From: Planctomycetia bacterium
GTDB taxonomy: Bacteria > Planctomycetota > Planctomycetia > Pirellulales > Thermoguttaceae
Assembly: GCA_030527185.1 (NCBI GenBank)
Contig: JAUNBF010000004.1
Location: 30,347-94,346 of the forward strand
DNA length: 64,000 nucleotides
Direction: 5' to 3'
Shown: positions 4,234 through 61,613 of the stretch, piece after piece
Numbering within the stretch: position 1 is the first letter of the stretch
Layout: each line of letters opens with the position of its first letter
Notes under the pieces: model-generated
What the model saw: the letters and a program-made list of their open reading frames with translations, nothing else
What the model was told of the DNA's origin: nothing
Database searches by the model: none
Translations under genes and position numbers: made by a program

Positions 4234-5595
4234 ATGAATTGGAAGACCCACCGACGTAATTTCCTGAAATCGACCGCTGTGGCAGGTGCCGGAGTGTTGA
4301 TTGTCAAGGATTTGCTGGCGAATGAATCCCCGAACGAGAAGATTGCCTTTGCCTGCGTCGGAATTGGTGGAAAGGGGAGCAGCGACTCGGCGGACGCGGC
4401 ACGGTTTGGTCAGGTCGTGGCGGTTTGCGACACGAACCGGAATCAACTCAAAGGGGGCGAAAAACGTTTTCCCGGCGCGAAGTTGTACGAAGATTATCGG
4501 GTGCTGTTCGAGGAGATGGGCAAAAGTATTGATGCCGTGACCGTCAGTACGACCGACCACATGCACGCTCCGATTGCGTCGATGGCGATGCGGATGGGAA
4601 AACATTGTTTTTGCCAGAAACCGTTGACGCGAACGATTTCGGAAGCACGGAAACTGGCGGAACTGGCGAAGGAAAACAACGTCGTGACGCAGATGGGAAA
4701 CCAGGGAACGGCCAGCACCAATTCCCGCGAAGGGGTGGCGTTGATTCGTAACGGGCTGGTGGGCGAAGTGAAGGAAGTGATGGTCTGGACGAACCGTCCG
4801 ATTTGGCCGCAGGGTGGTGAACGGGGCACCCCGGCGGAAGTCCCCGCGTATCTGAACTGGGAAGCGTGGCTGGGCTGCGCTCCCCAACGACCCTTTGTGC
4901 CGGGTGCGTATGATCCGTTTGCGTGGCGTGGTTGGTGGGATTTCGGCTCCGGGGCATTGGGAGATATGGCGTGCCATACCGCCAGCGTGGCGTATCGCGC
5001 GTTGGATATGAAAGACCCGGTGAGTGTCCAGGCCACGACCTCCGGCCACAACTACGACAGCTTCCCGAAATGGTCGACGATTGAGTTTGAATTCCCCGCC
5101 ACCGATTGGCGTCCCGGATTCAAGTTCACCTGGCTCGACGGCGGCAAACGGCCTGATCCCGAATTGTTGGGTGGAATCCAGCCTGCCGGTTCCGCGTTTT
5201 TGTTGATTGGAACGAAAGGGACGTTCTATTCGCCGGATGATTACGGCAATACCCGCACGATTATCGGAGCGGCGAAGGATGACGAGGCGGCGCTTTTGGA
5301 AAAAGTCCGTCCCGAAGTCCGCGTGGCTCAGGAAGGGCATTTCGGCGAATGGGTCGAAGGAATCAAGAAGAATGATCCGACGTTCCCGATGTCGAACATG
5401 ATTACGCAGGCAGGCGGCTTGACCGAAACGATTCTCCTGGGGAACCTGGCGGTCTGGGCGGCCAATAAACCGGAAGAATTGGGCGAAAAAGTGGAGTGGG
5501 ACGCCAAAAATCTGAAGATTTTGGGGAATCCGCAGGATCGGGAGCGGTTGGAATCGCTCGTCTTCCCGAAATATCGCGAAGGTTATACGCTGTAA
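4234..5595 (+). CDS. Tat-signal Gfo/Idh/MocA family oxidoreductase (paralogue 1)
   Basis: SD GAGGAG then ATG 4234. Twin-arginine signal HRRNFLKSTAVAGAGVL. Rossmann segment FACVGIGGKGSSD..VAVCD. Conserved STTDHMHA and CQKPL blocks. Confidence 0.9.
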   Translation: MNWKTHRRNFLKSTAVAGAGVLIVKDLLANESPNEKIAFACVGIGGKGSSDSADAARFGQVVAVCDTNRNQLKGGEKRFPGAKLYEDYRVLFEEMGKSIDAVTVSTTDHMHAPIASMAMRMGKHCFCQKPLTRTISEARKLAELAKENNVVTQMGNQGTASTNSREGVALIRNGLVGEVKEVMVWTNRPIWPQGGERGTPAEVPAYLNWEAWLGCAPQRPFVPGAYDPFAWRGWWDFGSGALGDMACHTASVAYRALDMKDPVSVQATTSGHNYDSFPKWSTIEFEFPATDWRPGFKFTWLDGGKRPDPELLGGIQPAGSAFLLIGTKGTFYSPDDYGNTRTIIGAAKDDEAALLEKVRPEVRVAQEGHFGEWVEGIKKNDPTFPMSNMITQAGGLTETILLGNLAVWAANKPEELGEKVEWDAKNLKILGNPQDRERLESLVFPKYREGYTL

Positions 5596-8657: not shown

Positions 8658-9833
8658 ATGTCCAAATTACCGGCATTCATGACAAGCCTGACACTTTTAA
8701 CCGCCCTGGCGACGAACGCGATTCCGGCGGCGGGAGAGTCTTCCATCACGGTCAAAACATGGGGCAAATTGCCCTCCGGGGAGGAAGTCAAACTTTACAC
8801 GCTCACGAACAATCTGGGAATGCAGGTGACGATTTCCAATTACGGCGGGTTGATTACGTCGCTTTGTGTGCCTGACAAAGAGGGGAAGATGGAGGATGTG
8901 ATTCTGGGGTTCGACACGCTGGAAGAGTACATGGAGAAGAGTCCCTATTTTGGAGCGGTCGTGGGGCGTTACGGAAACCGGATTGGCGGTGGAACGTTTA
9001 CGATTGATGGAACGGCCTATCAGGTCACGAAAAATGAGAAGGGAATCCAGTGCCTTCATGGCGGAAATGTTGGTTTCGACAAGAAAATCTGGGATGTGGA
9101 AGAAATCACCAGCGAAAACCTCCAGCACGACCGGATCGATACCGATAAAATCATCGGTTTGAAGTTGACGCTGATCAGTCCCGATGGCGAAGAGGGTTTT
9201 CCAGGGACGATCAACACGGTGCTGCATTACATGGTTCCGAAAGACACGAATCTGCTGGTGGTACTCTACGGAGCGACAACGGACAAGCCGACGCACCTGA
9301 ATTTGACGCAACATGCGTATTTTAACATGAAAGGGGCGGGAAATGGCGATATTCTGGATCACGAAGTGACGATTTGGGCAGACCGTTTCACGCCGGTGGA
9401 TGAAAATCTGATTCCGACGGGCGAATTGCGGGATGTGACCGGGACAGCCATGGATTTCCGTCAGCCGAATTTGGTGGGAGCCAGAATCGATGCCGACGAG
9501 GAACAGATCAAAATTGGCGGCGGCTATGATCACAACTGGGTTTTGAACGTGAAGGAAGGGGAGAATTTCCGTAAAGCGGCGAAAGTTCGTGACCCTGCCA
9601 GCGGTCGGACGATGGAAGTTTTCACCACGGAACCGGGCGTTCAATTCTACGCGGGCAACTTCATGAGTACCATGCCGGGAAAGGGTGGAAAAACCTATGT
9701 CAAGCGTGGCGGTCTCTGCTTTGAAACGCAGCATTTTCCCGATTCACCGAACAAACCGCAGTTCCCCTCCACGTTGGTAAAACCTGGGGAAGAGTACAAA
9801 TCAGCCACGATTTTCAAGTTCTCGGCGGAATGA
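8658..9833 (+). CDS. galM: Aldose 1-epimerase (galactose mutarotase), secreted
   Basis: SD AAGGAG. Signal peptide MSKLPAFMTSLTLLTALATNAIPAAG. GRYGNRI, LHGG..GFDKK.W, NLTQHAYFN and FETQHFPDSPN are mutarotase signature blocks. Confidence 0.9.
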   Translation: MSKLPAFMTSLTLLTALATNAIPAAGESSITVKTWGKLPSGEEVKLYTLTNNLGMQVTISNYGGLITSLCVPDKEGKMEDVILGFDTLEEYMEKSPYFGAVVGRYGNRIGGGTFTIDGTAYQVTKNEKGIQCLHGGNVGFDKKIWDVEEITSENLQHDRIDTDKIIGLKLTLISPDGEEGFPGTINTVLHYMVPKDTNLLVVLYGATTDKPTHLNLTQHAYFNMKGAGNGDILDHEVTIWADRFTPVDENLIPTGELRDVTGTAMDFRQPNLVGARIDADEEQIKIGGGYDHNWVLNVKEGENFRKAAKVRDPASGRTMEVFTTEPGVQFYAGNFMSTMPGKGGKTYVKRGGLCFETQHFPDSPNKPQFPSTLVKPGEEYKSATIFKFSAE

Positions 9834-9979
9834 TTCCGAACGTTTGAAAGGAATTTTTGAAAAAATTTCCCCTCCCGCTAATTTTCTGTAACATTCCTAT
9901 TTACAGAGAGTTACGTCGGAGGGATTTTTTATGAAAAGGTGAAAAGTAAAAATTTTTCAAAAATTTTCGGGGAAATTAC

Positions 9980-10008
9980 TTGACTTTCAAACAAAAGGAA
10001 CTTATACT
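9980..10008 (+). promoter_or_regulatory. Near-consensus sigma70 promoter TTGACT-17-TATACT
   Basis: TTGACT 9980-9985, 17-nt spacer, TATACT 10003-10008. Followed by SD AGGAG (10044-10048) and ATG 10056. Confidence 0.6.
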
Positions 10009-10082
10009 GAAGAAAATTCGTTTTGGGTGAAGGAAACTTTGAAAGGAGTGTTGAAATGAAGAACTTGGAACATTGCATTTTA

Positions 10083-10092
10083 CCCCCCCCCC
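10083..10092 (+). repeat. C10 homopolymer tract between ATG 10056 and the PEP-CTERM ORF frame
   Basis: Ten consecutive C. The ATG-10056 frame stops at 10098-10100, and the main ORF is one frame off. Confidence 0.95.
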
Positions 10093-10149
10093 TGTTTTAA
10101 CATAGAAACAGGTATTTCCGGGATTTTCTGGGGAGTTTTTCTTTCCCTG

Positions 10150-12321
10150 ATGCCAACTTTTGCCATGGAGCAAAACCCGTACGATGATCGGGAGCCGTAT
10201 GCCTCCTATACCGATGGTGGTGAATTTTCTCATCAGTCTCTGATAAATAGCCAGTTTTACTACAAAACGTCGGAAGACGCGACTTCGGGCATGTTGCGTG
10301 TGGGGGAGAATCGCGATAATGGGATTGCCGCTCTTTATCAGACCGCCGGAACGGTCCATGCCAACTCCAATTATCCGATTATTGGTCAGAGTACCAATGC
10401 TTCTGCCACAGGGCTACACTTCAGTCTGTATCAACTGAGCGGTTCTACCAAAGCATACATCGTGGGAAGTGGTGGTGCAAATGGACTTTATATGGCTACT
10501 GCCGACTACAATGACGCCGTACTGGAAATCCAGGAAAACTCTCCCGACACGGTTCTCTTTTGCTCGGATATTCGTTTAGGCTCATCCAGTGGCTATTCTT
10601 CCAATGCTCATGTTCAACAAGCTTCCGGTACGATTTACGCAACGACCATAACGACTCCGACTGCCGCAAAAGCAGGGTACGAATATGGTTATACCCTTTC
10701 CGACGGGAATCTTTTTGCAGGTGCCATCACGAATACTCCAATGACCTTTATCGGTGGTACGATGGCGTTTGAAACGTCCAACACCTCCCTGACGAACGAT
10801 GGCGGAACGCTGGAGATTTACGGGAATCTTGCCTCGGCACTCCAGAAGGAAACTTATACCTATGCCCTTTTTGCTGCGGGAAATACGCCAGGGTATACGA
10901 CGTATGGCACCTCCACAGTGACGGGAGATTACGTTCAAAAGAACGGAACGTTGGCATTGGATTACCATGCCGGGACACCAACAAATTCCGACAAACTGGC
11001 CGCCACGAACATAGCGCTGGAGGGGGGAAAGGTTCTGGTTCGTTCCAGCCTTTACGCCAATCATACCGGCTTGGAATCGTTTGACGGACTGGATGGAAAC
11101 ATCACGTCGAGTGCGACGGTACAAGCCTCCATGAGCGGATGGAAATGGAAACTGGACACCACGACCGGCACCCTTTCGACCGACATGAAGACGTGGAATC
11201 CCACCACCCAAACCACCATTGCGGACGGCGATTACCTGACGTTGTATTCCACATCAAAATTTGCCGGAAGTTTCAACATGACGGGGGGGTATTTGACAGG
11301 CCGATTTTATATGGGTACCGACACCGCGGATTTTACGATGAATCAATCCGGTGGTACCACCCTATTGAATCAGACAAGCTACTGGGCGGTGCTTTTGGAA
11401 TCCGGTACAAGTGGTCGACAGGCCATTTGGAATCTTTCCAACGATGCCAAATTCTACGTTTTCGATAACCAGTCCTACAACGGCGAAGATCGACGTATGA
11501 ATATCGGAAAAGGTTATCTTGGGAAAATCACCATTGCGGATAACGTCGTTTTTCATGCCGATGCTGTGGGGTTGGGAGTAAATAATGGAAGCAGTTACTA
11601 CGGACGTGGCATTGTCGAACAGTCTGGCGGTGAGGCCTATTATCATCTACTCCGAATGTACACCCGAAAGGAATCTGTAGGTACGTCCGACCCCTCTTCC
11701 TATACCCTTACCGATGGGAGACTCGTGGTTCGCAAACTGGAATCTTACGCTCCCGACACTTCCGCCACGATTCAACCTCTTTTCCAACTCCAGGGTGGCA
11801 CCGCAACGATTGTGGAGAGTAACATGTCTCTGGTGAACGATGGCTCCACCATTCAAATCCAATCGGTTGGCGATATTCTGGACGATTTTCGTTACCTCAA
11901 CGACGGTGACGAGACGACCGATCGTCCTCTTGGGTTCACGAACATCGGCACCATGGATGTAACCGGTACATTCACGCAAAACAGGGGTATCATCGAATTT
12001 GAAATAGACAGTGAAACACTTTTGGACACGCTCAATGCGTCTGAGGGGATTTTCCTCAATGGCGGCGACCTGTTCGTGGAGTACCTTGGGGAGGAAATTC
12101 TGGCGGAAGGTACCACATTCGCCATTTTTGGAGAAAGTCCCTCCGTCACGTTTGGCGAGTTGTTCAATACTCTCGTTTCCAATCGTGAGGGAACGCAATT
12201 TTGGCAATTGAACACTTGGGGAGCAACCTACGTTGGAAGTGAAATAGCCGTCCCCGAACCTGCATCGTGGCTTCTTCTCGTTCTGGGGCTGGGATACTTT
12301 CTGAAGCGACGTTGGGCATGA
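10150..12321 (+). CDS. PEP-CTERM sorting-domain surface protein with beta-strand-repeat body; 5' end frameshifted relative to the likely true start at 10056
   Basis: The C-terminus VPEPASWLLLVLGLGYFLKRRWA is a PEP-CTERM motif plus TM plus basic tail. T/G/S/N-rich repeats. ATG 10150 gives no signal peptide. The in-frame upstream extension encodes GISGIFWGVFLSLMPTFA but has no start codon. Confidence 0.8.
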   Translation: MPTFAMEQNPYDDREPYASYTDGGEFSHQSLINSQFYYKTSEDATSGMLRVGENRDNGIAALYQTAGTVHANSNYPIIGQSTNASATGLHFSLYQLSGSTKAYIVGSGGANGLYMATADYNDAVLEIQENSPDTVLFCSDIRLGSSSGYSSNAHVQQASGTIYATTITTPTAAKAGYEYGYTLSDGNLFAGAITNTPMTFIGGTMAFETSNTSLTNDGGTLEIYGNLASALQKETYTYALFAAGNTPGYTTYGTSTVTGDYVQKNGTLALDYHAGTPTNSDKLAATNIALEGGKVLVRSSLYANHTGLESFDGLDGNITSSATVQASMSGWKWKLDTTTGTLSTDMKTWNPTTQTTIADGDYLTLYSTSKFAGSFNMTGGYLTGRFYMGTDTADFTMNQSGGTTLLNQTSYWAVLLESGTSGRQAIWNLSNDAKFYVFDNQSYNGEDRRMNIGKGYLGKITIADNVVFHADAVGLGVNNGSSYYGRGIVEQSGGEAYYHLLRMYTRKESVGTSDPSSYTLTDGRLVVRKLESYAPDTSATIQPLFQLQGGTATIVESNMSLVNDGSTIQIQSVGDILDDFRYLNDGDETTDRPLGFTNIGTMDVTGTFTQNRGIIEFEIDSETLLDTLNASEGIFLNGGDLFVEYLGEEILAEGTTFAIFGESPSVTFGELFNTLVSNREGTQFWQLNTWGATYVGSEIAVPEPASWLLLVLGLGYFLKRRWA

Positions 12322-12332
12322 GGGGAAATACC

Positions 12333-12719
12333 ATGAAAAGAAAACCTGTACCAGTACTGTTTCTACTTATCTTTGCCGTGGGTTGCGGACAGAAAACCGG
12401 CACGGTTTCCGGCACGGTTTTGTGGGAGGGAAAACCTGTGGAAAATGGGGTGATCGAGTTTGTGCCGCTGGATGATAAAACGATTCCAGCGACCCCCGCC
12501 CAAATTATCGACGGAAAATATCAGGCCACTGTCCCGCTCGGACGGATGCAAGTGCAATTGACCTGTTATGCGGACGAAGGGAGTTATTATCCTTCAGGAC
12601 CGACAGGACCGAAAATCAAGCCGTTACGGAACGTGATTCCCCCGGAGTGGAATGTGGAGTCCAAACTGGAATATACGGTTTTGAAGGGAGAGCAAAAATA
12701 TGATTATCCGAAAAAATAA
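12333..12719 (+). CDS. Small lipoprotein, carboxypeptidase-regulatory-like beta-sandwich candidate
   Basis: ATG 12333 gives [20 protein letters not shown] (lipobox FAVGC). [19 protein letters not shown] is typical of the small partner proteins of DUF1559 genes. Overlaps the next gene by 20 nt. Confidence 0.7.
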
Positions 12720-13659
12720 TGCTTTCACGTTGGTGGAACTCCTGGTTGTGATTGCTATTATCGGGATGCTGGTGGGGCTACTCCTTCCCGCGGTACAACA
12801 GGCACGGGCGGCTGCGCGTCGGATGCAGTGCGCGAATAAAATGCGTCAATATGGTCTCGCTTTTTTGAACTACGAAACCCAAAATCAGAAATTTCCGTGG
12901 GGGACGCAGCGAGGCGATGGAAAGACCAATCCGCCGGACGGTTCGGGGGGCTGGGTTGCGGGAAGCGGAGCCAAAAATCAAATACGTCGTTCGTTTCTCG
13001 TTTGGATTTGGCCTTATTTGGAACTGAACGCGAACTACCAGGAATTCAACTTCGACTACAATCCCGGCAATTGGCAAAACAGCAACAACATGTCCCTATG
13101 TCAACCCGTGGCGATTTACTTTTGCCCGGACGACCGACCGAATGCACTGTGGTCACCGTCGGATGGAACAAAAAGTAGTTATTCCAAAGGGAATTACGTC
13201 GTCAATTTCGGTGAACTCGACCTTTCCAAAAGCAAGCTGAATCTGAACTGCCAACTGAAGAAAGCCCCTTTCGATATTAACCTTCGACGTACCGCAGGTG
13301 AATTTCGCGACGGACTTTCCAACTGCGTATTTCTGTCGGAAGTGCTGATTTCTCCACTCGATTCCGACTACGATATGCGGGGATTGGTCTTTTATGAAGT
13401 CGATGCGGGGGCTCACTTTATGACCAATCAACAACCCAACTCCGGCTGGGATTACCAGATTTGCCAGGGGGAACCCATTCCCGGTGTCACCTGTTCAGGA
13501 GGTACTCCTTATCGGATTCCTGCCCGAAGCAATCACTCCAATGGGGTGAATGCCGTACGTGGTGACGGTTCCGTATCGTTTGTCAGTAACTCCATTGACC
13601 TCGACGTTTGGAAAAGTCTGGGAACCATCTGTGAGGGAGATATTGTCAGCGAATTTTAG
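12700..13659 (+). CDS. DUF1559 / H-X9-DG protein with prepilin-type N-terminal methylation motif
   Basis: N-terminus [31 protein letters not shown]-terminal [12 protein letters not shown] (H-X9-DG). Confidence 0.9.
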
Positions 13660-13694
13660 TCGCTTGTTTGAGAAAAAGATAGGAATGGAGAAAA

Positions 13695-16247
13695 ATGAAG
13701 AATCGATTGAAGAAGTTGCTTGCCTGCCTTTGGGGGGTTGCGGGGATGATTTGTCCACTTTCCGCAAAAGAGGATTTTCAGTATGTTCTGGAACGGGATT
13801 GGATGCGGCAGGATGCGGAAAAACTGGATGTTTCCCACTGTTTTACCGCTTCGGAAGGGAATGCCTGGGAATATCGGATGGTGGAAAAGGTTCTTCAGGA
13901 ACTTTCCGCCAAAGAGCCTTTTCAAGAGACACTGCGATCGTTAAAAGAGGTTCCAGGAAAGGATGCGCGTTGGAAAGAACTGTATCGACAAGCCTGTAAA
14001 GCACGTCGAATCCAACGGTTGCGGCCTCTTTTGGAGAAAACCTCTCAACTGATTTATTGTCAACATTGTCCGATAGGTGCCGCCGGAAATATCGCGGGGA
14101 ATCACTTTCCCACGGATCGTCGCCGTCCGCCTCATCGACAGGATACTTCTCAACCATTGCATAAAACCTGGAAGAAAGGGAGTCAGCTCCGTCTCCTAAC
14201 GATTGCGAAAGATGGGTCTGTCCACGAAGATATTTTGGCGGAAACCCCGGAAGGCTTTATTCGTGATCCGGCACTTTCGTGGGATGGAAAAAAAGTATTG
14301 GTGGCCAGGCGGGACTCGTTTTTAACCGACGATTACCAGATTTACGAATTGGATTTGACCTCCCGCCAATGGCATCCGATAACCTGTTCGTTGGAAAAGG
14401 ATGGCAAAGTTTATCCCATCAGTTGCGTGGAGCCATGTTATCTGCCCAGTGGGCGAATTATTTTCCAATCGACGCGGTGTGCTCAGTTAGACCCTTGTGG
14501 TTGGGATGTTTCAGGAAATCTTTATTCCTGCGAGCCAGATGGTTCGGGAGTGCGACGTCTGGGATTTGATCAGGTAACGACAATGTTTCCGCAGGTTCTC
14601 GACGATGGTCGGATTCTCTATACGCGATGGGAATACAACGATCGAACACCCATTTTTATCCAACCCCTCTTCGTCATGAATGAGGATGGAACGGGACAGA
14701 CCGCTTTTTATGGGAATAATTCCTGGTTTCCCGTTTCACTCCTGCACGCGCGTGGTGTGCCGGGAAGTACGCTGGTCATGGCGATTGCTTCTGGCCATCA
14801 CACGCTTCAAAAGGGGAAATTGGTATTGGTCGATCGTTCTCGCGGAACAGATGGTGATGTGGGAATCACGTTTTTGGGGGAACCATTTTCATCCCCTCTA
14901 ACTCAGGCAAAAGAGAAAAGTACGGAATTGGATGGTTTTGGACAGGGAGGTGGGCAATTTGCATACCCGTATCCTTTGGATGAGAGATATTTTCTCGTTT
15001 CCTTTACACCAGACGGTTATCAGGGACATGTCAACTATGCCGAACACCTTTATCCCAATACGACAGGGCAACCCTTCGGTGTTTATTGGATGGATGCTTC
15101 TGGACGGCGGGAATTGCTGGCGTTCGATTCGGAAAACTGCTGTATGCAGGCAATTCCCGTTATGGCACGTCCCATTCCGCCTGTACGCAGTTCGCAGATC
15201 AACGAAAACGTAACAACAGGGACGTTTTATGTTCAGAATATTTATCTGGGACCAGGCTTAAAAGGAGTTCCCCAGGGAACCATTCGGAAATTGCGAGTCG
15301 TAGCTCTGGAATATCGGGCCGCGTGGGCAGGAAGTAACAATAACCACGGAGAGGGGGGAGGGTCCTGCGTTCAGACTCCGATTGGAGGAAATAATGCCTG
15401 TTGGGATGTGAAACATGTCCTTGGAGAAGTGGATGTGGAGGAAGATGGGAGTGCTTTCTGGGAAGTGCCTGCCAGAACACCGGTTTATTTCCAGATGTTG
15501 GATGAGAAAGGACGTTGCGTCCAGACCATGCGCAGTTGGACAATGCTCATGCCAGGAGAAAATTTTGCTTGTCTGGGTTGCCATGAACCATCTTCACAAG
15601 TGGGACCGGCCATGCAATCTCAGGGAACGCTGGCAATGAAAAAACCTCCTCAAAAACTCCAGCCAGTGGATGGGAGGCCGCACCCACTTTTGCTGCGAAA
15701 ACCGAACGCTCCCCTTTCTGTAGAAGACTATCTTGGCATCCAGCGTCCAAGAAAAATGGATCCCGACGCGCCTGTGGAAGGTTTCAGTTTTTTGCAAAAG
15801 ATTCAACCCATTTTGGACAAACATTGCGTCCACTGCCATTCGGAACAGGGAAACGGTGAACATCGTTCCGATTTCTGCCTGACTTCCGAGCGAGTACGGG
15901 ATGAGCGGGCGCAACGTCTCTTTACCCGTTCCTATCTCCAATTGACGAATCATGGTAAGGAGGGGAAATGGATTTTCTGGATTCAACCCGAAAGTCGTCC
16001 GACATTGTTACCTCCCTGGCATACAGGTTCGACTCGGAGTAAGTTGATGGATTATCTGGAGCCAACACATTATGAAGTACAGGTTTCCGAGCAGGAGAAA
16101 AAGACCGTGGCTTGCTGGATTGATTTGGGGGTTCCTTTTTGCGGTGCCTATCCCGAAGCCCATCTCTGGAATGAGGAACAAAAAGCTGCCTATGATTTTG
16201 CCCAGCAAAAACGTCTTTTGTATGCCGAACAGGAAGATTACCAGTAA
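13695..16247 (+). CDS. Secreted beta-propeller (PD40/TolB-like) protein with two CxxCH haem-c motifs
   Basis: Signal peptide MKNRLKKLLACLWGVAGMICPLSA. PD40-like DPALSWDGKKVLVARRD..YQIYELDL. CLGCH (15570-15584) and CVHCH (15825-15839). Confidence 0.8.
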   Translation: MKNRLKKLLACLWGVAGMICPLSAKEDFQYVLERDWMRQDAEKLDVSHCFTASEGNAWEYRMVEKVLQELSAKEPFQETLRSLKEVPGKDARWKELYRQACKARRIQRLRPLLEKTSQLIYCQHCPIGAAGNIAGNHFPTDRRRPPHRQDTSQPLHKTWKKGSQLRLLTIAKDGSVHEDILAETPEGFIRDPALSWDGKKVLVARRDSFLTDDYQIYELDLTSRQWHPITCSLEKDGKVYPISCVEPCYLPSGRIIFQSTRCAQLDPCGWDVSGNLYSCEPDGSGVRRLGFDQVTTMFPQVLDDGRILYTRWEYNDRTPIFIQPLFVMNEDGTGQTAFYGNNSWFPVSLLHARGVPGSTLVMAIASGHHTLQKGKLVLVDRSRGTDGDVGITFLGEPFSSPLTQAKEKSTELDGFGQGGGQFAYPYPLDERYFLVSFTPDGYQGHVNYAEHLYPNTTGQPFGVYWMDASGRRELLAFDSENCCMQAIPVMARPIPPVRSSQINENVTTGTFYVQNIYLGPGLKGVPQGTIRKLRVVALEYRAAWAGSNNNHGEGGGSCVQTPIGGNNACWDVKHVLGEVDVEEDGSAFWEVPARTPVYFQMLDEKGRCVQTMRSWTMLMPGENFACLGCHEPSSQVGPAMQSQGTLAMKKPPQKLQPVDGRPHPLLLRKPNAPLSVEDYLGIQRPRKMDPDAPVEGFSFLQKIQPILDKHCVHCHSEQGNGEHRSDFCLTSERVRDERAQRLFTRSYLQLTNHGKEGKWIFWIQPESRPTLLPPWHTGSTRSKLMDYLEPTHYEVQVSEQEKKTVACWIDLGVPFCGAYPEAHLWNEEQKAAYDFAQQKRLLYAEQEDYQ

Positions 16248-16264
16248 AAAGGAAAAAGAATAAA

Positions 16265-19200
16265 ATGCAACGGCTTTTTTTCGGAATATGTTGGAGTAGG
16301 GTGTTGACCGTATGGTGTGTGGCAGTTCCTGCCATGGCTATCGTGACAGAGGTTTCCGCCAATGAGGAAAAATCGCAGAATTTTATCCTTCATCGTCGTC
16401 AACTCCCCTTTCCTCAAACCCGGCTGATTCAAGACTGGATGAGACAGGATCGCGGCCAATTGGATGTTTCTACCTGTTTTCAGAGCGAATCGAGTACGGC
16501 AGAAGAAAAAATGATTCGCCGTGGCCTGGCGGAAATTCAAAAACGGGGCGGGGATACGGCTGATTTGGAAAAAGAATTGCGGAGACTGTTGAAAAAGAAC
16601 GTTCCGGGAAACGATCCCGCGTGGCGGGAATGCTACCTGCAAATGGGAACGTTTCGGCGACAGCTTCGCTTGCGGGAAGTGAGAAAATTCTGCTCGGAAT
16701 ATCTTTTTACCAAGCATTGCCAACTTTCCAATCAGCCCTGTTTTGCTTCCACGGCATTTTTGTCCGATTCCGTATACCAGGATAGATTGGGGGACTGGCG
16801 GATGGGTTCGGAACTCTACCATTTAACCATTTCCGATTCCGCGGAAGTTACGATAACTCTGCTTCACGAGGAAAAAAACGGGATTATCCGCGATCCGGCA
16901 GTGTCCTACGATGGAGAAAAAGTCGCTTTTTCCATGCGTCGCAGCGAATTGCAAGACGACTATCACCTTTACGTGATGGACTGGAAAACCCGCCGGATAA
17001 CACCGATTACCTTCGGGCCTGGAGTGGCGAATTTCGAACCTTGCTGGCTTCCAGACGGAGATTTGATTTTCGCTTCTTCGCGGTGTGATCAGTGTGTGCC
17101 ATGCTGGTCGAGCGATGTGATGAATCTCTATCGTTGCGACGCGGAAGGACGTTATTTGCGGCGTTTGACTTACGATCAGGCACATAATCTCTACCCTCAG
17201 CCGATGGCCGACGGTCGGATTCTTTATACCCGTTGGGAGTATAACGACCGCGTTTCAGGGAAAGTCCACAAACTTTTCATCATGAATCCTGATGGGACGG
17301 CTCAGACGGAATATTACGGCAACAATTCCCATGCTCCCCGTTCGATTATCCATGCGCGAGCCATCCCAGGAAGTTCCCGGGTAATGGTAATCGGAGCAGG
17401 GCACCATACCGACCAGAGCGGGAAATTGATGCGGATGGATCGCAATTGGGGGACACAGGAAAATGAGGGATTGGAATACGTCGCTCCTGTCCGATGGTTT
17501 GAACCGGTGAAAGATGACCTGTTTGGTAAAGAGGGGGAACTTTTTCAGTATCCTTTTCCTATCGACGAAGAAAACTATCTCGTTTCGTATTTGCCCGAAG
17601 GTGGTCCGGCACGTTCCTTTTATCCGATTCCGTTTGGAATTTACTGGATGAATTCGGCAGGAGATCGGGAGTTGCTGGTCTATGATCCGACGATTTCTTC
17701 CGGCCAGATCGTCCCTCGAATGCCACGTGAAAAACCACTGCAAAAGGCCGACGGTTACGATTTTTACCAAAATAAGGGTTTCTTTTATGTTCAGGATGTC
17801 TATTATGGCCCCGGCTTGAAAGGAATTCCACGTGGGACGATCAAGAAAATGCGTGTGATTGCCCTTTCTATTCGAGCGATGTCGGCGGGGGTCGATTACA
17901 ATCAGCCCAGTTCCCAAATCCATACACCTGTCTCTATCGGGAACGGAAGCTGGGATGTCAAGCATGTTCTGGGAACAGTCGACATCGAAGAAGATGGTTC
18001 TGCCTACTTCCAGGCTCCTTCGCGAATGCCTCTTTACTTCCAGCTTCTGGACGAAAAGGGACGAATGGTGCAGACCATGCGCAGTTGGACAATGCTCATG
18101 CCAGGAGAAACGTTTGGTTGTATCGGCTGTCATGAGAATAAAAACGATACCTTCCTCAATCATAAACCGATTACGATGGCTTTGAAAAAACCTCCACAGA
18201 CCATTCAGCCCTTTTATGCCGAGGGAGAAATTGCGATACCGGAATTCTATCCGCTTCTCAACGATTCGCAGAAACGGGCAATGAAATACTTGAATGTCAA
18301 TGCCCCCCAGGCCAACGATGTTCCGCAGGGGTTCAGTTACCTCCGAGAAATCCAGCCGATTTGGGATAGGCACTGCATTGCTTGCCATACGGGTGGCAAA
18401 AGGGATGATGGCACGCTTGCCCCCTTCTCACTTTTGGGAGATACACGCAACTATGGTTGGAAAGAGTGTTGGGAAGGGATTGCGTCACGTCCCTGGTCCA
18501 AAGAACACATCTATCCCCAAACAGGCAAAGACAGAAATCCAGGGCGGAATTACGCTGCCTCGTACCTGGAACTGACCCGATATGGTCGACTTCGATCGGA
18601 TGATAAAAAAAACACGTTTGTCCCGGAAAGTCCATGGCTGAACTGGCTGCCAATGGCAATTGCGGAACCACCCATGCTGCCTCCTTATACCTGGGGCGCG
18701 TTTAAGAGCAAACTGATGGAGTATCTGGAGCCAGAACATTACGGTGTCCAGCTTACCGAACGTGAAAAAGGACGGATTGCCTGTTGGATCGACCTCTGCG
18801 TTCCGTACTGTGGTTCCTACATGGAAGCGAACCAATGGGACCAGATTTCTCATGGTTACATCCATTTTTACCAAAATCAACTTCGTCCTGCCTATCTTTT
18901 TCAGGAGGCCAAACGGCTCCATCACGCGGAGGTGGAGTGTGAGCATCTCGAACGTTTTCAACAGCATTGCGAAGAGGGGAAAAACTTCCAACTGGTAGAT
19001 TTTCCAAAAGATACGGTGGGGGGGAAAGAAATGCGGCAAAATTTTGTGCAAGCCTGGGAAAATCTCCCTCAGACCGTGCCGATTTACGGACTGGCAGAGG
19101 GAAGGGACGCACGCGGTGGCTCCAACATTGCGGGAAACCCCATTCGGAACCTGGCACGGAATCCCCATGCCGCGATTTTTTCCCTTCGATCGTATCCTGC

Positions 19201-19597
19201 TATCACCTCCAATTCACACTACCGGTACTTGCACGAATACGCTCCTACCAGGGCCATTGACGGAGAATTTTCTCGTGAAAAATACTGGAAACCTCTGCGA
19301 CGTACCGATTTGTGGCTGAAATTGGAGTTCGGACGGGAAGTGGAGGTAGAACGGATGGTTTTGACACTTCACTTACAACCGGGACAGACGAAAACCTGGC
19401 AAAATGTCGTCCTGGAATTTTCTCATGGTGAGAAACTCCCTCTGAAACTCCTCTGTTCGGAAAAACCTCAGGAATTCACCTTTCCGACAATGCAATGTTC
19501 GTGGATACGATTGGCAGGTTGGCAAGAACCTTTCCCTTTGAGTGAAAATGGCCTGGCCGAGTGGGAAGTTTATGGAAAAGATTTGCCCAAACCATGA
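16265..19597 (+). CDS. Paralogous secreted beta-propeller/di-haem protein with an extra C-terminal discoidin (galactose-binding-like) domain
   Basis: Shares the blocks ILYTRWEYNDR, MRSWTMLMPGE, KLMEYLEP and ACWIDLCVPYCG with the preceding gene. CIGCH and CIACH motifs. The C-terminus (AIDGEFSREKYW..LAEWEVYG) is discoidin-like. Confidence 0.8.
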   Translation: MQRLFFGICWSRVLTVWCVAVPAMAIVTEVSANEEKSQNFILHRRQLPFPQTRLIQDWMRQDRGQLDVSTCFQSESSTAEEKMIRRGLAEIQKRGGDTADLEKELRRLLKKNVPGNDPAWRECYLQMGTFRRQLRLREVRKFCSEYLFTKHCQLSNQPCFASTAFLSDSVYQDRLGDWRMGSELYHLTISDSAEVTITLLHEEKNGIIRDPAVSYDGEKVAFSMRRSELQDDYHLYVMDWKTRRITPITFGPGVANFEPCWLPDGDLIFASSRCDQCVPCWSSDVMNLYRCDAEGRYLRRLTYDQAHNLYPQPMADGRILYTRWEYNDRVSGKVHKLFIMNPDGTAQTEYYGNNSHAPRSIIHARAIPGSSRVMVIGAGHHTDQSGKLMRMDRNWGTQENEGLEYVAPVRWFEPVKDDLFGKEGELFQYPFPIDEENYLVSYLPEGGPARSFYPIPFGIYWMNSAGDRELLVYDPTISSGQIVPRMPREKPLQKADGYDFYQNKGFFYVQDVYYGPGLKGIPRGTIKKMRVIALSIRAMSAGVDYNQPSSQIHTPVSIGNGSWDVKHVLGTVDIEEDGSAYFQAPSRMPLYFQLLDEKGRMVQTMRSWTMLMPGETFGCIGCHENKNDTFLNHKPITMALKKPPQTIQPFYAEGEIAIPEFYPLLNDSQKRAMKYLNVNAPQANDVPQGFSYLREIQPIWDRHCIACHTGGKRDDGTLAPFSLLGDTRNYGWKECWEGIASRPWSKEHIYPQTGKDRNPGRNYAASYLELTRYGRLRSDDKKNTFVPESPWLNWLPMAIAEPPMLPPYTWGAFKSKLMEYLEPEHYGVQLTEREKGRIACWIDLCVPYCGSYMEANQWDQISHGYIHFYQNQLRPAYLFQEAKRLHHAEVECEHLERFQQHCEEGKNFQLVDFPKDTVGGKEMRQNFVQAWENLPQTVPIYGLAEGRDARGGSNIAGNPIRNLARNPHAAIFSLRSYPAITSNSHYRYLHEYAPTRAIDGEFSREKYWKPLRRTDLWLKLEFGREVEVERMVLTLHLQPGQTKTWQNVVLEFSHGEKLPLKLLCSEKPQEFTFPTMQCSWIRLAGWQEPFPLSENGLAEWEVYGKDLPKP

Positions 19598-58914: not shown

Positions 58915-60309
58915 TCACGCGGTTCGTGGCCGTCGCACTCGAAACACTGCGAGGAATCCCATAATAAGAAGACACCAGGTGGATGGTTCCGGGAGTTCGT
59001 TTTCTTTTCCGATAACGAATCGACCTTCCGTACTTACTACCTGAAAACCGTTCGGAAGGCTCAGATTTCCCAGAATTTCCAGATTCTCCGCAGTGAAAAT
59101 CTCGAATTGGGAGCCATATGCGGAACTCCACGGCTGTACGAAGGAAACTTGCAGCGTCCCGTCAATATTTACCTCGTCAAAGTGGATTACGTCGGGATTC
59201 TCAAAGTCATAGAGAATATCCAGCCAGCCATCGGAAGTGGTGTTCAACTCACCACCGGTAGTATCGAAAAAATCAATCGTCTGCCGGGCACCGACATTCA
59301 ACACACCGTTCGTAAGCAGTGTTAGCTGGTCGAACGCGTCGCCAGGATTCGTGGCGTTGATATTCAACGTGCCATAAGCGCGAACCTGCGTCGCCGTGGT
59401 ACTGTCGATGGAACCACCCTCAAAATTCACGACGGCAGGATACTCCGCGGTTGCCGCGTTACCTCCGACAAGGAGTGCGTCCAGCGTCACTGCCGTTCCA
59501 GAAAAATTCGTCGTCCCGGAATATGCCGCCACTTTTTGGGTCGTCGTAAGATTACCGCCGTTGAGGTTCACTTCGCCATTTCCGACGCGGAGGTGATCAT
59601 TCATGGAGACCACCCCACTGGTGAGTGTGAAAGTTCCTTTTCCCGTGGTACGTTTGTTGGAGTTATCGCAACCGACATAAATGGCACCGGAATTCAACGT
59701 GCCGTTGTCGATGAAGACATACCCATCACCGGAAAGACTGGCAACCCGAACCGCGTTGGTCACGAAAACCGCTCCGCCCTGGCTGATATTCAATGTGCCG
59801 GAAATACCGGAGTGGGTGAGATTACTGCCGAGCCTCAAACCGTCGTTGCCCTGGATTGTCAGGACGGAGTTGGTGCCTGTGACCGTCAGGGTACCTTTTC
59901 CACCCGAGGCATATCCTACGTCTGCCTTGCCAGCAACCGTTACGGCAGAGCCATTTTGAATCGTAAGCGTCCCATTACCATACATTCCAATCCAGAATGA
60001 GGAGTCCGCGTTTATTGTGGCGGCATCCACGACGACCTGGCTGGTATTCTTGTTGTAACGGCCAACCCCAAGGCCTTTGAGGGTAAATATGCCATTGCGG
60101 ATGGTGTGCGTGGAGGTTGTACTTCCCCCCGTGTCCACTTCTTCACCCTGCAACCAGATTTGAGTATTGGTACCGGGTGTGTACGTACTTGTCGTGTTCC
60201 AGGTTCCTCCGGTACTCTCCTCGCCATTTTTTAAATAATGGTGTGTCTGCCCATGAGCTGAAAATGCCAGAAAAAGCATGGTCGCAAAAATTGCCATTCG
60301 TTTGTTCAT
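58915..60309 (-). CDS. PEP-CTERM sorting-domain surface protein with autotransporter-like beta-strand repeats
   Basis: Signal peptide MNKRMAIFATMLFLAFSAHG. Repeated G.LT..G / GTL.I units. C-terminus LPEPSTWCLLIMGFLAVFRVRRPR. Confidence 0.85.
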   Translation of the reverse strand: MNKRMAIFATMLFLAFSAHGQTHHYLKNGEESTGGTWNTTSTYTPGTNTQIWLQGEEVDTGGSTTSTHTIRNGIFTLKGLGVGRYNKNTSQVVVDAATINADSSFWIGMYGNGTLTIQNGSAVTVAGKADVGYASGGKGTLTVTGTNSVLTIQGNDGLRLGSNLTHSGISGTLNISQGGAVFVTNAVRVASLSGDGYVFIDNGTLNSGAIYVGCDNSNKRTTGKGTFTLTSGVVSMNDHLRVGNGEVNLNGGNLTTTQKVAAYSGTTNFSGTAVTLDALLVGGNAATAEYPAVVNFEGGSIDSTTATQVRAYGTLNINATNPGDAFDQLTLLTNGVLNVGARQTIDFFDTTGGELNTTSDGWLDILYDFENPDVIHFDEVNIDGTLQVSFVQPWSSAYGSQFEIFTAENLEILGNLSLPNGFQVVSTEGRFVIGKENELPEPSTWCLLIMGFLAVFRVRRPRTA

Positions 60310-60341: not shown

Positions 60342-61292
60342 TTAGGGAGAAAGAGTTGCGACTTGTCCATCGTTCCGACTTCCCAAGTAGCGATAAACCG
60401 TTTCCCAATCAATGTCATACGCGACGCGTCGCACTGAACCATCGCATAAGGCCATGCCAAACGATCCGGCATGACAACTTCCAAAATTACGATAAACGTA
60501 AAGCCCCGAACGATCCTGACGCGGCTGATACAGTTCCCGATTGTCCCCTGATTGAATCGTATAAGTGAAACGATGCACGTCCGTATCGAATCCCTGAAAC
60601 GCGCTCTGATTATCACAAGCGTCGGTGCCCGTTTCGTAATTCTCTGGCATGAGGTACTTCTCACCAAGTAAAAAAGTATTGGAAGTACCGTCTCGAATTT
60701 CACCGATGGAAACCTGGCTGCGGGAATAGATTACCCCGTCAAAATCCGAATCCTGAAATTGCCATAAAGAACTGTGAGAATCGGAATACTTCGCCAAATC
60801 ACCCGCAGAAGAGGGTTTGTCGACCGCCAAACGTCCCAGAGAACCACTGTTGGCCGCGTAATCCGTTTTCAGACAACCTTCTTTGGAAATATCGTCGCAG
60901 TTGACGTATTTACAGACATGGGAATAGCTTTTCACCGCACGACGGGAAGGGCATATCAGGAAAGACAACACTTCCTTTTCCCGGTGGGCGGCCCCCGTCT
61001 TTTGTTCTGGAGTCACCGTATCGGGCTGACCGTCCGCACCGAGCTGATACAACGCTCCCTGTTCCATGTACGGGAGAATTCCATAAATCCATCCGCCGGT
61101 CTGTTTTTTCCCCTGTCCCCGATCGGGATCGCCCGTCCAATAATAATTCCATCCGCCACTGGGAAAGGCACGACACGAAGATTCGCAATTCAGACAGGCT
61201 ATCGCCATTTGACGTAAGTTGTTTTGGCACCGCATGTTCCGTGCCGCTTCACGTGCCTGTTGTACTGCCGGAAGAAGAAGTCCGACAAGCAT
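60342..61292 (-). CDS. DUF1559 / H-X9-DG protein; N-terminal prepilin motif and true start (ATG 61405) separated by a frameshift at a G11 tract
   Basis: The track ORF begins at an internal Met of ..[27 protein letters not shown]. The in-frame upstream extension encodes [15 protein letters not shown] but has no start codon. C-terminal HAGSFGMALCDG (H-X9-DG). Confidence 0.8.
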   Translation of the reverse strand: MLVGLLLPAVQQAREAARNMRCQNNLRQMAIACLNCESSCRAFPSGGWNYYWTGDPDRGQGKKQTGGWIYGILPYMEQGALYQLGADGQPDTVTPEQKTGAAHREKEVLSFLICPSRRAVKSYSHVCKYVNCDDISKEGCLKTDYAANSGSLGRLAVDKPSSAGDLAKYSDSHSSLWQFQDSDFDGVIYSRSQVSIGEIRDGTSNTFLLGEKYLMPENYETGTDACDNQSAFQGFDTDVHRFTYTIQSGDNRELYQPRQDRSGLYVYRNFGSCHAGSFGMALCDGSVRRVAYDIDWETVYRYLGSRNDGQVATLSP

Positions 61293-61371
61293 ACCGATAA
61301 TGGCAATGACGACCAGAAGTTCGACAAGAGTAAATCCTACGCGATTTTCGTGAAGAAAACACGCATTTTTA

Positions 61372-61382
61372 CCCCCCCCCCC
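61372..61382 (-). repeat. G11 (plus-strand C11) homopolymer tract just after ATG 61405
   Basis: Eleven consecutive C on the plus strand. The leader frame MVWKSVKLGGGVKMRVFFTKIA* stops at 61339-61337. Confidence 0.95.
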
Positions 61383-61482
61383 AACTTAACAGATTTCCAG
61401 ACCATTTTTACTCCTTTGCAAACAATGTCTATCGACGAAATTTTTTTGGTTCAAGGGAACCATTCCCCCAAACCATCATTCT

Positions 61483-61511
61483 ATCATAGTCCACATCCCC
61501 GGAAATGTCAA
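61483..61511 (-). promoter_or_regulatory. Consensus promoter TTGACA-17-TATGAT for the DUF1559/PEP-CTERM pair
   Basis: Minus strand: TTGACA (61511-61506), 17-nt spacer, TATGAT (61488-61483). SD AAGGAG (61416-61411) lies 5 nt before ATG 61405. Confidence 0.6.
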
Positions 61512-61613
61512 GTAAAAAACCTTCAATTTTATCCAGTGAATAAAATCAAAGGTTGTATTCCATGGTTGCGTCGGAAAATTGGGGAGTGGAATCAGGAGAT
61601 TTTCCCCCATGAC

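Follow-up and report, generated by a model that had tools for sequence, protein, structure and literature searches.

Repeat-driven ON/OFF switching of gene expression is known mainly from pathogens, among them Neisseria, Haemophilus, Campylobacter and Helicobacter. In Neisseria, pilC carries a poly-G tract in the region encoding its signal peptide, and the roughly 11 opa paralogs carry CTCTT repeats in their leaders. Here we describe a comparable arrangement in a 64,000-nucleotide (nt) stretch of a metagenome-assembled genome (MAG) of a Planctomycetia bacterium of the Thermoguttaceae (assembly GCA_030527185.1, contig JAUNBF010000004.1, positions 30,347 to 94,346), which we call the window. Two G/C homopolymers lie there just past a start codon: a run of ten C (C10) at 10083-10092 of the plus strand, ahead of the gene for a 723-residue PEP-CTERM protein (locus 1), and a run of eleven G (G11) on the coding minus strand at 61372-61382, in the leader of a gene for a DUF1559 (also named SBP_bac_10) prepilin-like protein (locus 2). 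We propose that both runs are probably hypermutable translational ON/OFF switches at operon heads, acting by slipped-strand phase variation, and that both are OFF in this assembly. This reading is well supported for G11 and circumstantial for C10.

Poly-G switches of Neisseria also include hmbR/hpuAB (PMC3786947, PMC5953494). The loci described here resemble pilC and opa in the placement of a repeat early in the gene of a surface protein, just behind the start codon and within the part that encodes the export leader, with one length class in three ON. As in opa, many paralogs per genome share leader and repeat, so that the loci could switch independently. They differ in their hosts, here Planctomycetota and low-G+C gut Bacilli, in their products, here DUF1559 prepilin-like proteins and a PEP-CTERM protein of putative beta-helical fold, and in a flank motif that recurs across species, with ATGTTAAAnT before the tract and TAAA after it. 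Switching has been measured in Neisseria, whereas here it is predicted from sequence.

A second parallel is offered by the phasomes of the gut-associated Campylobacter and Helicobacter, in which G/C homopolymers of about 8-13 bases lie in open reading frames (ORFs) at tens of loci per genome, and in which lengths vary by strain while the tracts are kept (PMC6321876, PMC2823697). Those tracts occur in gene classes that are unrelated to one another and at varied positions; of the 82 G/C runs of at least 9 in the Planctomycetota DNA that we fetched (585 kb), 80 lie in a single type of prepilin leader, the C10 of the window being the exception. Full-text literature searches found no paper tying DUF1559, Planctomycetota or Thermoguttaceae to phase variation or homopolymeric tracts. 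The mechanism is textbook; its host phylum here, the families of genes concerned (those for DUF1559 pilin-like proteins and for PEP-CTERM proteins) and the leader cassette shared across paralogs and two phyla appear to be new.

Two tracts between start codon and export signal

At locus 1, a promoter-like sequence, TTGACT-17-TATACT (9980-10008, plus strand), agrees with the consensus at 10 of 12 positions, a consensus match only, and is followed by a Shine-Dalgarno (SD) sequence, AGGAG, at 10044-10048, 7 nt 5' of an ATG at 10056; both are read from the sequence. In the assembled state this ATG opens a reading of 14 codons, MKNLEHCILPPPLF, which ends at a TAA at 10098-10100 (10056-10100, plus strand). 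The C10 tract begins 27 nt after the ATG. The frame of the PEP-CTERM gene is +1 relative to that of the ATG and is open back to 10060, yet it holds no ATG, GTG or TTG before the ATG at 10150 from which the 723-residue protein is annotated (MDO4582751.1, 10150-12321, plus strand). Without a start codon of its own, this upstream part of the frame (10093-10164, plus strand) encodes a signal-peptide core and a cleavage-like site, CFNIETGISGIFWGVFLSLMPTFA/MEQ. Among simulated tract lengths of 8 to 13, only C9 and C12 join the ATG at 10056 to the ORF; C8, C10, C11 and C13 run into a stop codon 2-3 codons or fewer past the tract. In the ON state, the signal peptide would take its n-region from the first 12-13 codons of the ATG frame. 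The only hydrophobic stretch near the N-terminus lies in the leader frame (GIFWGVFLSLM, Kyte-Doolittle maximum 1.94, against -0.20 at the annotated N-terminus); judged by hydropathy alone, an N-terminal signal peptide is present only in the fused (C9/C12) reading and is absent from the annotated start. When the protein is aligned with its homolog P0002, its mature N-terminus falls at about the TFA/MEQ site, which supports the fused reading of leader and ORF. The ORF is otherwise intact over 742 codons.

Locus 2, on the minus strand, has the same design. Reading from the sequence, we find a promoter-like TTGACA-17-TATGAT at 61483-61511, an SD sequence, AAGGAG, at 61416-61411, a 5-nt spacer and an ATG at 61405-61403, whose assembled reading, MVWKSVKLGGGVKMRVFFTKIA, ends at a TAG at 61339-61337 (61337-61416 in all). 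The tract is G11 on the coding strand (C11 on the plus strand), with GTTAAGTT before it and TAAAAATG after it, and is in frame at G9 or G12; out-of-frame lengths reach a stop 0 or 11 codons past the tract. The gene behind it (60342-61385) encodes a DUF1559 protein with a prepilin-type N-terminal methylation domain, and its frame is open through the tract, without a start codon there. Joined to its ATG, the leader reads MVWKSVKL-G11-KNACFLHENRVG/FTLVELL, where the slash marks the prepilin cleavage site. Matches to PF07596 (2.9e-42), PF07963 and TIGR02532 and a GspG-like N-terminus place the protein among the DUF1559, type IV prepilin-like proteins, its N-terminal helix matches those of solved type IV pilins, and the gene is otherwise intact over 347 codons.

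The two runs stand out in the window. No other G/C run is longer than 7 (seven runs reach that length, at 1288, 11283, 19018, 23733, 31521, 49530 and 51064), and a first-order Markov model predicts about 0.24 C runs and 0.07 G runs of 10 or more, or about 0.3 in total. The codons chosen in the rest of the window do not build long runs: 24% of its Gly codons are GGG and 21.5% of its Pro codons are CCC, and mixed codons encode each of the 12 other Gly-Gly-Gly tripeptides as well as the single Pro-Pro-Pro. Since both runs also lie 20-27 nt past the SD-ATG of an exported-protein gene, a chance origin of the pair is very unlikely. Both are over-represented and long enough to be hypermutable (about 8 or more for G/C), as is characteristic of contingency loci, and both occupy, on paper, a 5' coding position from which length would switch expression. 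The initial annotation of this DNA had read the elements of locus 1 in the same way, from the promoter and SD sequence through the ATG and C10 to the out-of-frame ORF with its startless, signal-peptide-like extension, and had predicted fusion at C9 or C12. It had also pointed to the same arrangement at 61372-61382 and to the absence of other G/C runs of 10 or more, with well under one expected. All of these claims held when checked by direct reading, simulation, hydropathy and a census of runs.

We propose a model in which slipped-strand mispairing at replication would change the length of each tract, heritably and reversibly. Each tract separates a strong SD-ATG from the part of the leader predicted to confer export. 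At locus 1 this part is the core of a Sec signal peptide, which is hydrophobic, and at locus 2 it is the G/FTLVELL prepilin cleavage and methylation motif. One length in three would join the start codon to the gene, and the other two would lead to an early stop. The majority alleles, C10 and G11, would be OFF, each a single slip from ON (C9 and G12). Because the switched gene is the first of its operon, the OFF state would probably lower downstream expression as well, an effect on the operon that the initial annotation had raised as a possibility, affecting a lipoprotein, a DUF1559 protein and two cytochrome-c-type proteins at locus 1 and a PEP-CTERM protein at locus 2. For C10, we infer switching, its reversibility and its rate, as we do the polarity on downstream genes.

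Poly-G prepilin leaders in Planctomycetota and Bacilli

The strongest support for switching at locus 2 comes from other genomes. We scanned GTDB, one genome per species, for runs of nine or more G followed 5-35 nt on by a back-translated GFTLVEL motif, and obtained at least 117 stretches; all family counts given here are among the matches listed in that scan. The locus-2 tract belongs to this group: it has the flank motif GTTAAR-n-T on its 5' side and TAAA on its 3' side, and its flanks score 15.1 bits against a position weight matrix (PWM) of the family, whose median is 13.8. At least 80 of the tracts are in Planctomycetota MAGs, where the layout is an SD-ATG, 3-8 codons usually ending in N-V-K-x (aATGTTAAAnT), the poly-G tract, usually TAAA or CAAA, 2-12 codons, and the G/FTLVELL motif. 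Their lengths are 9 (nine tracts), 10 (eight), 11 (13), 12 (34), 13 (12), 14 (two), 15 (one) and 22 (one), with a mode at 12, against the geometric decay expected by chance. Because it recurs across genomes with varying lengths, the leader that contains G11 makes it a member of a phase-variable-looking family. Many of the sources, judged by MAG name, are gut samples, for example Thermoguttaceae of goat and deer rectum and colon and rumen RUG bins, and others are not evident from the name; from isolate names, we take 'Planctomycetaceae' bins of the Kf353, Cc175, Hs463 and Th196 types to be from termite gut, and S1R_St_28 to be from stool.

Frame states are mixed. Judged by the SD-ATG, 36 tracts are in frame and 40 are out, of which 23 need a shift of +1 and 17 of -1; judged by the GTT codon, 30 of 54 are in frame. 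The in-frame share lies above one third and far below all. Between species, orthologous loci whose flanks of about 1.3 kb share 92-96% identity have unequal tract lengths: L023 has G11 and L078 G13; L055 has G11 and L107 G10; L004 has G11 while L074 and L075 have G13; L019 and L014 have G12 and L119 has G13. Judged by hand, each pair has one member ON and the other OFF. With flanks of 80-96% identity included, five ortholog groups of the locus-2 type differ in length by 1-2 bases. The leader of L074 and L075 is in another frame (MLKW, not NVKL), and it is G13 instead of G12 that restores the reading there. Single MAGs hold as many as 6-9 tract loci. The MAG S1R_St_28, a genome distinct from that of the window (G+C about 42%, range 40-44%, against 52%; protein accessions place the window in the MAG of MDO4582xxx-4584xxx, locus tags Q4D62_), has eight loci, of which five read in frame and three do not. 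Such a mixture of states among many loci of one genome is the pattern expected of contingency loci.

The DNA word before the tract, ATGTTAAA, is itself read in more than one way. In most loci it is read AAT GTT AAA (NVK); in L074, L075, L102, L119, L014, L078, L023, L091, L034 and L076 it is read ATG TTA AAA TGG (MLKW), with tract length shifted to suit. Read in the +1 frame, the same word offers a second ATG, and in the +2 frame it contains a TAA; with the second ATG, translation might be possible in two length classes out of three.

The tract-bearing leader is a specialized subset, since most close DUF1559 homologs have short, plain leaders such as MKRG/FTLVELL. A regular association with PEP-CTERM genes was considered and rejected: such a gene lies beside one of 50 family loci, that of the window itself, and 27 of these loci have a small ORF of lipoprotein-like type behind them. 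The window's genome holds a third leader tract, at 1640-1730 of L124 (Logan SRR24915838_31505), where GTTAAGCT-G12 stands ahead of RLRYPLKRVKSG/FTLVELL. Its upstream ATG is out of frame owing to a T5 run, and T4 would give a reading that begins MTFRNVKLGGGG. The PGAP annotation starts this protein at MGGGG (MDO4583473.1), the same state is found in a second MAG (MDO5113250.1), and two further PGAP proteins of the window's MAG begin with MGGG. In L049 (minus strand, about 4788-4798 in reversed coordinates) a leader ending in PVKL-G11 has no prepilin motif after the tract, and an ordinary DUF1559 gene with its own start (MQVTSKRG/FTLVELL) lies about 480 nt downstream; this tract looks like a relic leader.

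A corresponding set of 21 tracts, G9 to G15, is found in MAGs labeled Bacilli, Lactobacillales or Tenericutes with 20-32% G+C (L005, L006, L011, L016, L018, L020, L026, L030, L043, L046, L051, L059, L063, L067, L083, L085, L097, L098, L110, L113 and L116), whose names point to rabbit, reindeer, deer and Hadza human guts. In genomes of 20-32% G+C, a G9 run would essentially never arise by chance. One of these MAGs, CANROP01, carries six loci whose flanks are nearly identical and whose tracts measure 9, 9, 10, 10, 10 and 11, in leaders of the form M-x-R-T-N-V-R-T-Gly(n)-HLELNN-G/FTLIELL. Bacilli and planctomycete leaders have the peptide pattern N-[VSI]-[KRN]-x-Gly(n) in common, and their codons differ.

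Proposed switching and its alternatives

Several observations weigh against switching. Locus 1 is a single case, and what the family shows is about poly-G tracts of prepilin leaders, whereas C10 is a poly-C tract in a PEP-CTERM gene; the sole homolog of the locus-1 protein, P0002 (51% identical), lacks a tract, and its signal peptide, MLKQSFLVFVILAGNLLGAELFA, is an ordinary one. Exact-protein look-ups of five flanking and operon proteins found the organism in one public run only, SRR24915838, and public assemblies hold no second allele of C10 or G11. A relative in SRR22588136 (94-96% nucleotide identity; L126 and L127) is without both operons: synteny ends exactly at 9833, the end of an aldose epimerase gene, and resumes at 61588, upstream of argC, with other genes filling the gap. 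In ERR14654836 (84%; L125) only a 5'-truncated remnant of the PEP-CTERM gene is kept, joined to a homolog of the 1110-residue gene of locus 1. These losses also fit dispensable genes on their way out. Because they are absent or decayed in the two relatives, both tract-headed operons are, as judged from these genomes, accessory and evolutionarily labile, which fits contingency loci and gene loss equally. In addition, both tracts are exactly one base from an in-frame length, as a homopolymer miscall would give, and the consensus lengths of MAGs in the family may themselves hold errors, which makes the proportions of ON and OFF states approximate.

The last of these points invites a reading in which the true lengths are C9 and G12 and both genes are in frame in essentially all cells, the tracts still being mutable. 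Long G/C homopolymers are error-prone on every sequencing platform, and the source here is a metagenome bin. The Logan assembly of SRR24915838, built separately though possibly from the same reads, nevertheless has C10 (contig L001) and G11 (contig L003) as in the MAG, and the two agree on G12 at the third locus as well; the majority alleles are reproducible between assemblers to that extent. Moreover, about half of 77 family tracts, which come from many projects and were built with many assemblers, are out of frame, and the consensus error expected of short-read assemblies is far below that. We therefore consider a miscall unlikely. The initial annotation had posed phase switching and sequencing error as alternatives and had looked to tract lengths in related genomes to separate them. 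On the first matter, the family of the twin tract and the agreement with Logan, possibly on the same reads, favor a switch, while C10 itself remains a single instance with no second allele; on the second, orthologs of the locus-2 type do differ in length, but the two relatives of this organism lack both of the window's tracts.

We also think it unlikely that the two genes are recent pseudogenes, in which the tracts, as mutational hot spots, disabled accessory genes that the cell can do without, and no switching, whether adaptive or reversible, takes place. The absence of both operons from the 94-96% relative, between the synteny breaks at 9833 and 61588, and the remnant in the 84% relative are what this reading predicts, and the relic tract of L049 and the extra T5 frameshift in the leader of L124 are further signs of decay. 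Decay of this kind is hard to square with ORFs that are otherwise intact over 742 and 347 codons, with the G13 of L074 and L075, which compensates an upstream frame change, or with tracts of 10-13 bases that are kept across species while their length varies and their in-frame states exceed one third. This persistence, together with the in-frame enrichment, argues for maintenance by selection.

Programmed +1 frameshifting is known at CCC-C and poly-proline sites, which are prone to shifts, and in recoding of the prfB type. Locus 1 has a formal likeness to these systems: its ORF is +1 to the ATG frame, and its run reads as three CCC codons plus one C with a zero-frame stop nearby, where tRNA-Pro can slip +1. 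Out-of-frame lengths could on this view be functional and set a low level of product, through a +1 slip of tRNA-Pro on CCC-C (a Pro-Pro-Pro stall, sensitive to elongation factor P), a -1 slip on a G run, or transcriptional slippage by RNA polymerase. We find such recoding very improbable, because locus 2 would need the opposite shift and family tracts occur in all three frames at lengths of 9-15, with no single conserved configuration. The conserved slippery site, fixed frame relation and stimulator of a programmed ribosomal frameshift were not found: folding at locus 1 does not differ from that of shuffled sequences (z = 0.05), and its leader has no match to a known RNA element in Rfam.

The flanks of C10 raise a further question. 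On the minus strand, locus 1 (10071-10110) reads tATGTTAAAACA-G10-TAAAATGC, which is near the flank motif of the poly-G family: it scores 7.7 bits with the PWM unshifted (null p = 7e-4) and 12.9 bits with a one-base shift, against the family median of 13.8, and none of 421 background runs of G5-8 reaches 12.9. These flanks may be the relic of an inverted leader cassette, or may reflect a shared preference for A/T-rich flanks that contain stops. Although it works like the family on paper, C10 is not a family member by its sequence, being poly-C on the coding strand, inside a Sec-type leader, with no prepilin motif. That the tracts are DNA-level elements of another role, such as a recombination site or a relic inverted prepilin-leader cassette, with the frame break at locus 1 incidental, could draw on this likeness and on the retention of ATGTTAAA across Planctomycetota despite its being read in two frames, but it is scarcely credible given that homology to family loci ends about 10 nt on each side of C10, that no convincing inverted repeats bound an invertible segment or promoter at locus 1 (only an A/T-rich 17-nt repeat lies upstream of the promoter), that conservation in Bacilli is at the peptide level (N-[VSI]-[KRN]) with differing codons, and that the two window copies lie in direct orientation, 51 kb apart.

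Slipped-strand phase variation is the reading we retain for both tracts, and it allows a broader and more tentative proposal. Poly-G leaders of the form M-x(2-6)-N-[VSI]-[KRN]-x-Gly(n)-x(2-12)-G/FTL[VI]ELL could possibly be the mark of a phase-variation system, both widespread and undescribed, that acts on pilin-like surface proteins. The bacteria that carry it would be uncultured inhabitants of animal guts and would span at least two phyla, namely Planctomycetota (Thermoguttaceae and termite-gut lineages) and Bacilli of 20-32% G+C, and several independent loci per genome would give combinatorial surface variation under pressure from hosts or phages; in this scenario C10 would be a copy of that cassette, inverted and recruited to switch a PEP-CTERM adhesin operon. 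If these tracts switch, gut planctomycetes carry a multi-locus phasome centered on the protein family that is the most expanded in their phylum and the least understood. Switching would be an argument that host immunity or phages target DUF1559 pilin-like proteins at the cell surface, and the broader proposal, if true, would provide a first functional handle on this hugely expanded family by marking members as exposed, selectable surface structures. Switching would also bear on annotation. PGAP and Prodigal calls at these loci are truncated or oddly started, as with the 723-residue protein without a signal peptide, DUF1559 versions of 316 and 241 residues, and MGGGG starts; these look like artifacts of OFF states, in which case gene catalogs built from MAGs would undercount such genes. 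The hypothesis is directly testable on existing reads.

Proteins and neighboring sequences of the two loci

The 723-residue protein of locus 1 ends in VPEPASWLLLVLGLGYFLKRRWA, with the PEP motif, hydrophobic helix and basic tail of a PEP-CTERM sorting signal; it scores 22.4 bits against TIGR02595 (cut-off 16) and 19.3 against Pfam PF07589, slightly below the cut-off of 20.7. An AlphaFold model from three sequences (predicted local distance difference test score 71) is all-beta with a C-terminal helix at 706-722, and its best PDB matches are beta-helices of autotransporter passengers, namely IgA1 protease, EspC, Hbp, pertactin and Ag43. These matches suggest a beta-helix surface protein resembling autotransporter passengers, with a C-terminal anchor helix, an assignment that is tentative because the TM-scores are low (about 0.2). 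Phase-variable autotransporter adhesins such as Antigen 43 would be similar in being elongated beta-helix surface proteins under ON/OFF control (structural matches 7koh, 3h09 and 2iou, weak at TM about 0.2). Antigen 43 is switched epigenetically, by Dam and OxyR, and not by a repeat; and the 723-residue protein, unlike it, is PEP-CTERM-anchored and has no beta-barrel translocator.

Co-directional genes follow at 12333-19597 (plus strand) with gaps of -20 to +35 nt, and we infer from this tight spacing that the genes of locus 1 form an operon. They encode a 128-residue lipoprotein-like protein, a 319-residue DUF1559 prepilin-like protein with a plain leader (MIIRKNNA/FTLVELL), and proteins of 850 and 1110 residues. 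The last two (13695-19597) are paralogous, with a middle domain like hydrazine synthase alpha, a weak cytochrome c motif and beta-propeller repeats. At locus 2 the second gene (58915-60309, minus strand) encodes a 464-residue PEP-CTERM protein with a normal signal peptide and a repeat associated with type 5 secretion systems (T5SS) and PEP-CTERM proteins.

The -35 region of locus 1 (TTACTTGAC) is similar to that of locus 2, and the likeness extends over aaaTTACTTGACtTTC at 9975-9990 and tttTTACTTGACaTTTC at 61505-61520; a shared regulator or sigma factor may account for it. Upstream of the locus-1 promoter and past the end of the epimerase gene, the arms of a 17-nt, A/T-rich inverted repeat (9852-9868 and 9949-9965, 94% complementary, 80 nt apart) surround a terminator-like stem, CCCTCC...GGAGGG-T6. 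Downstream of the tract, a hairpin at 10115-10134 was considered as an attenuation terminator coupled to the early stop and was rejected, its folding energy equaling that of shuffled sequences (z = 0.05). The single metagenome match to the flanks of locus 1 (L123, 5379-5411, CATTGCATTTTA-8 nt-TGTTTTAACATAG) has no C run and lies in A/T-rich intergenic sequence of an unrelated contig, and we judge it to be a chance match.

Two further observations concern relatives of the prepilin leaders. Long N-terminal extensions are found on the DUF1559 homologs P0009, P0014, P0023, P0033, P0064, P0065, P0077, P0104 and P0118 from Planctomycetia MAGs and have motifs in common, such as GGQKRSACLP...RLQPAAAVVAP; they are probably a translated, repeated intergenic DNA element upstream of the genes, and the window has no counterpart of this GGQKRSACLP-type element. 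In a Neisseria sp. MAG (L066, 3737-3787), a G10 run stands directly 5' of the ATG of a pilin-like gene (MQKTLQKG/FTLIELM), a position in the 5' untranslated or promoter region and not in the leader.

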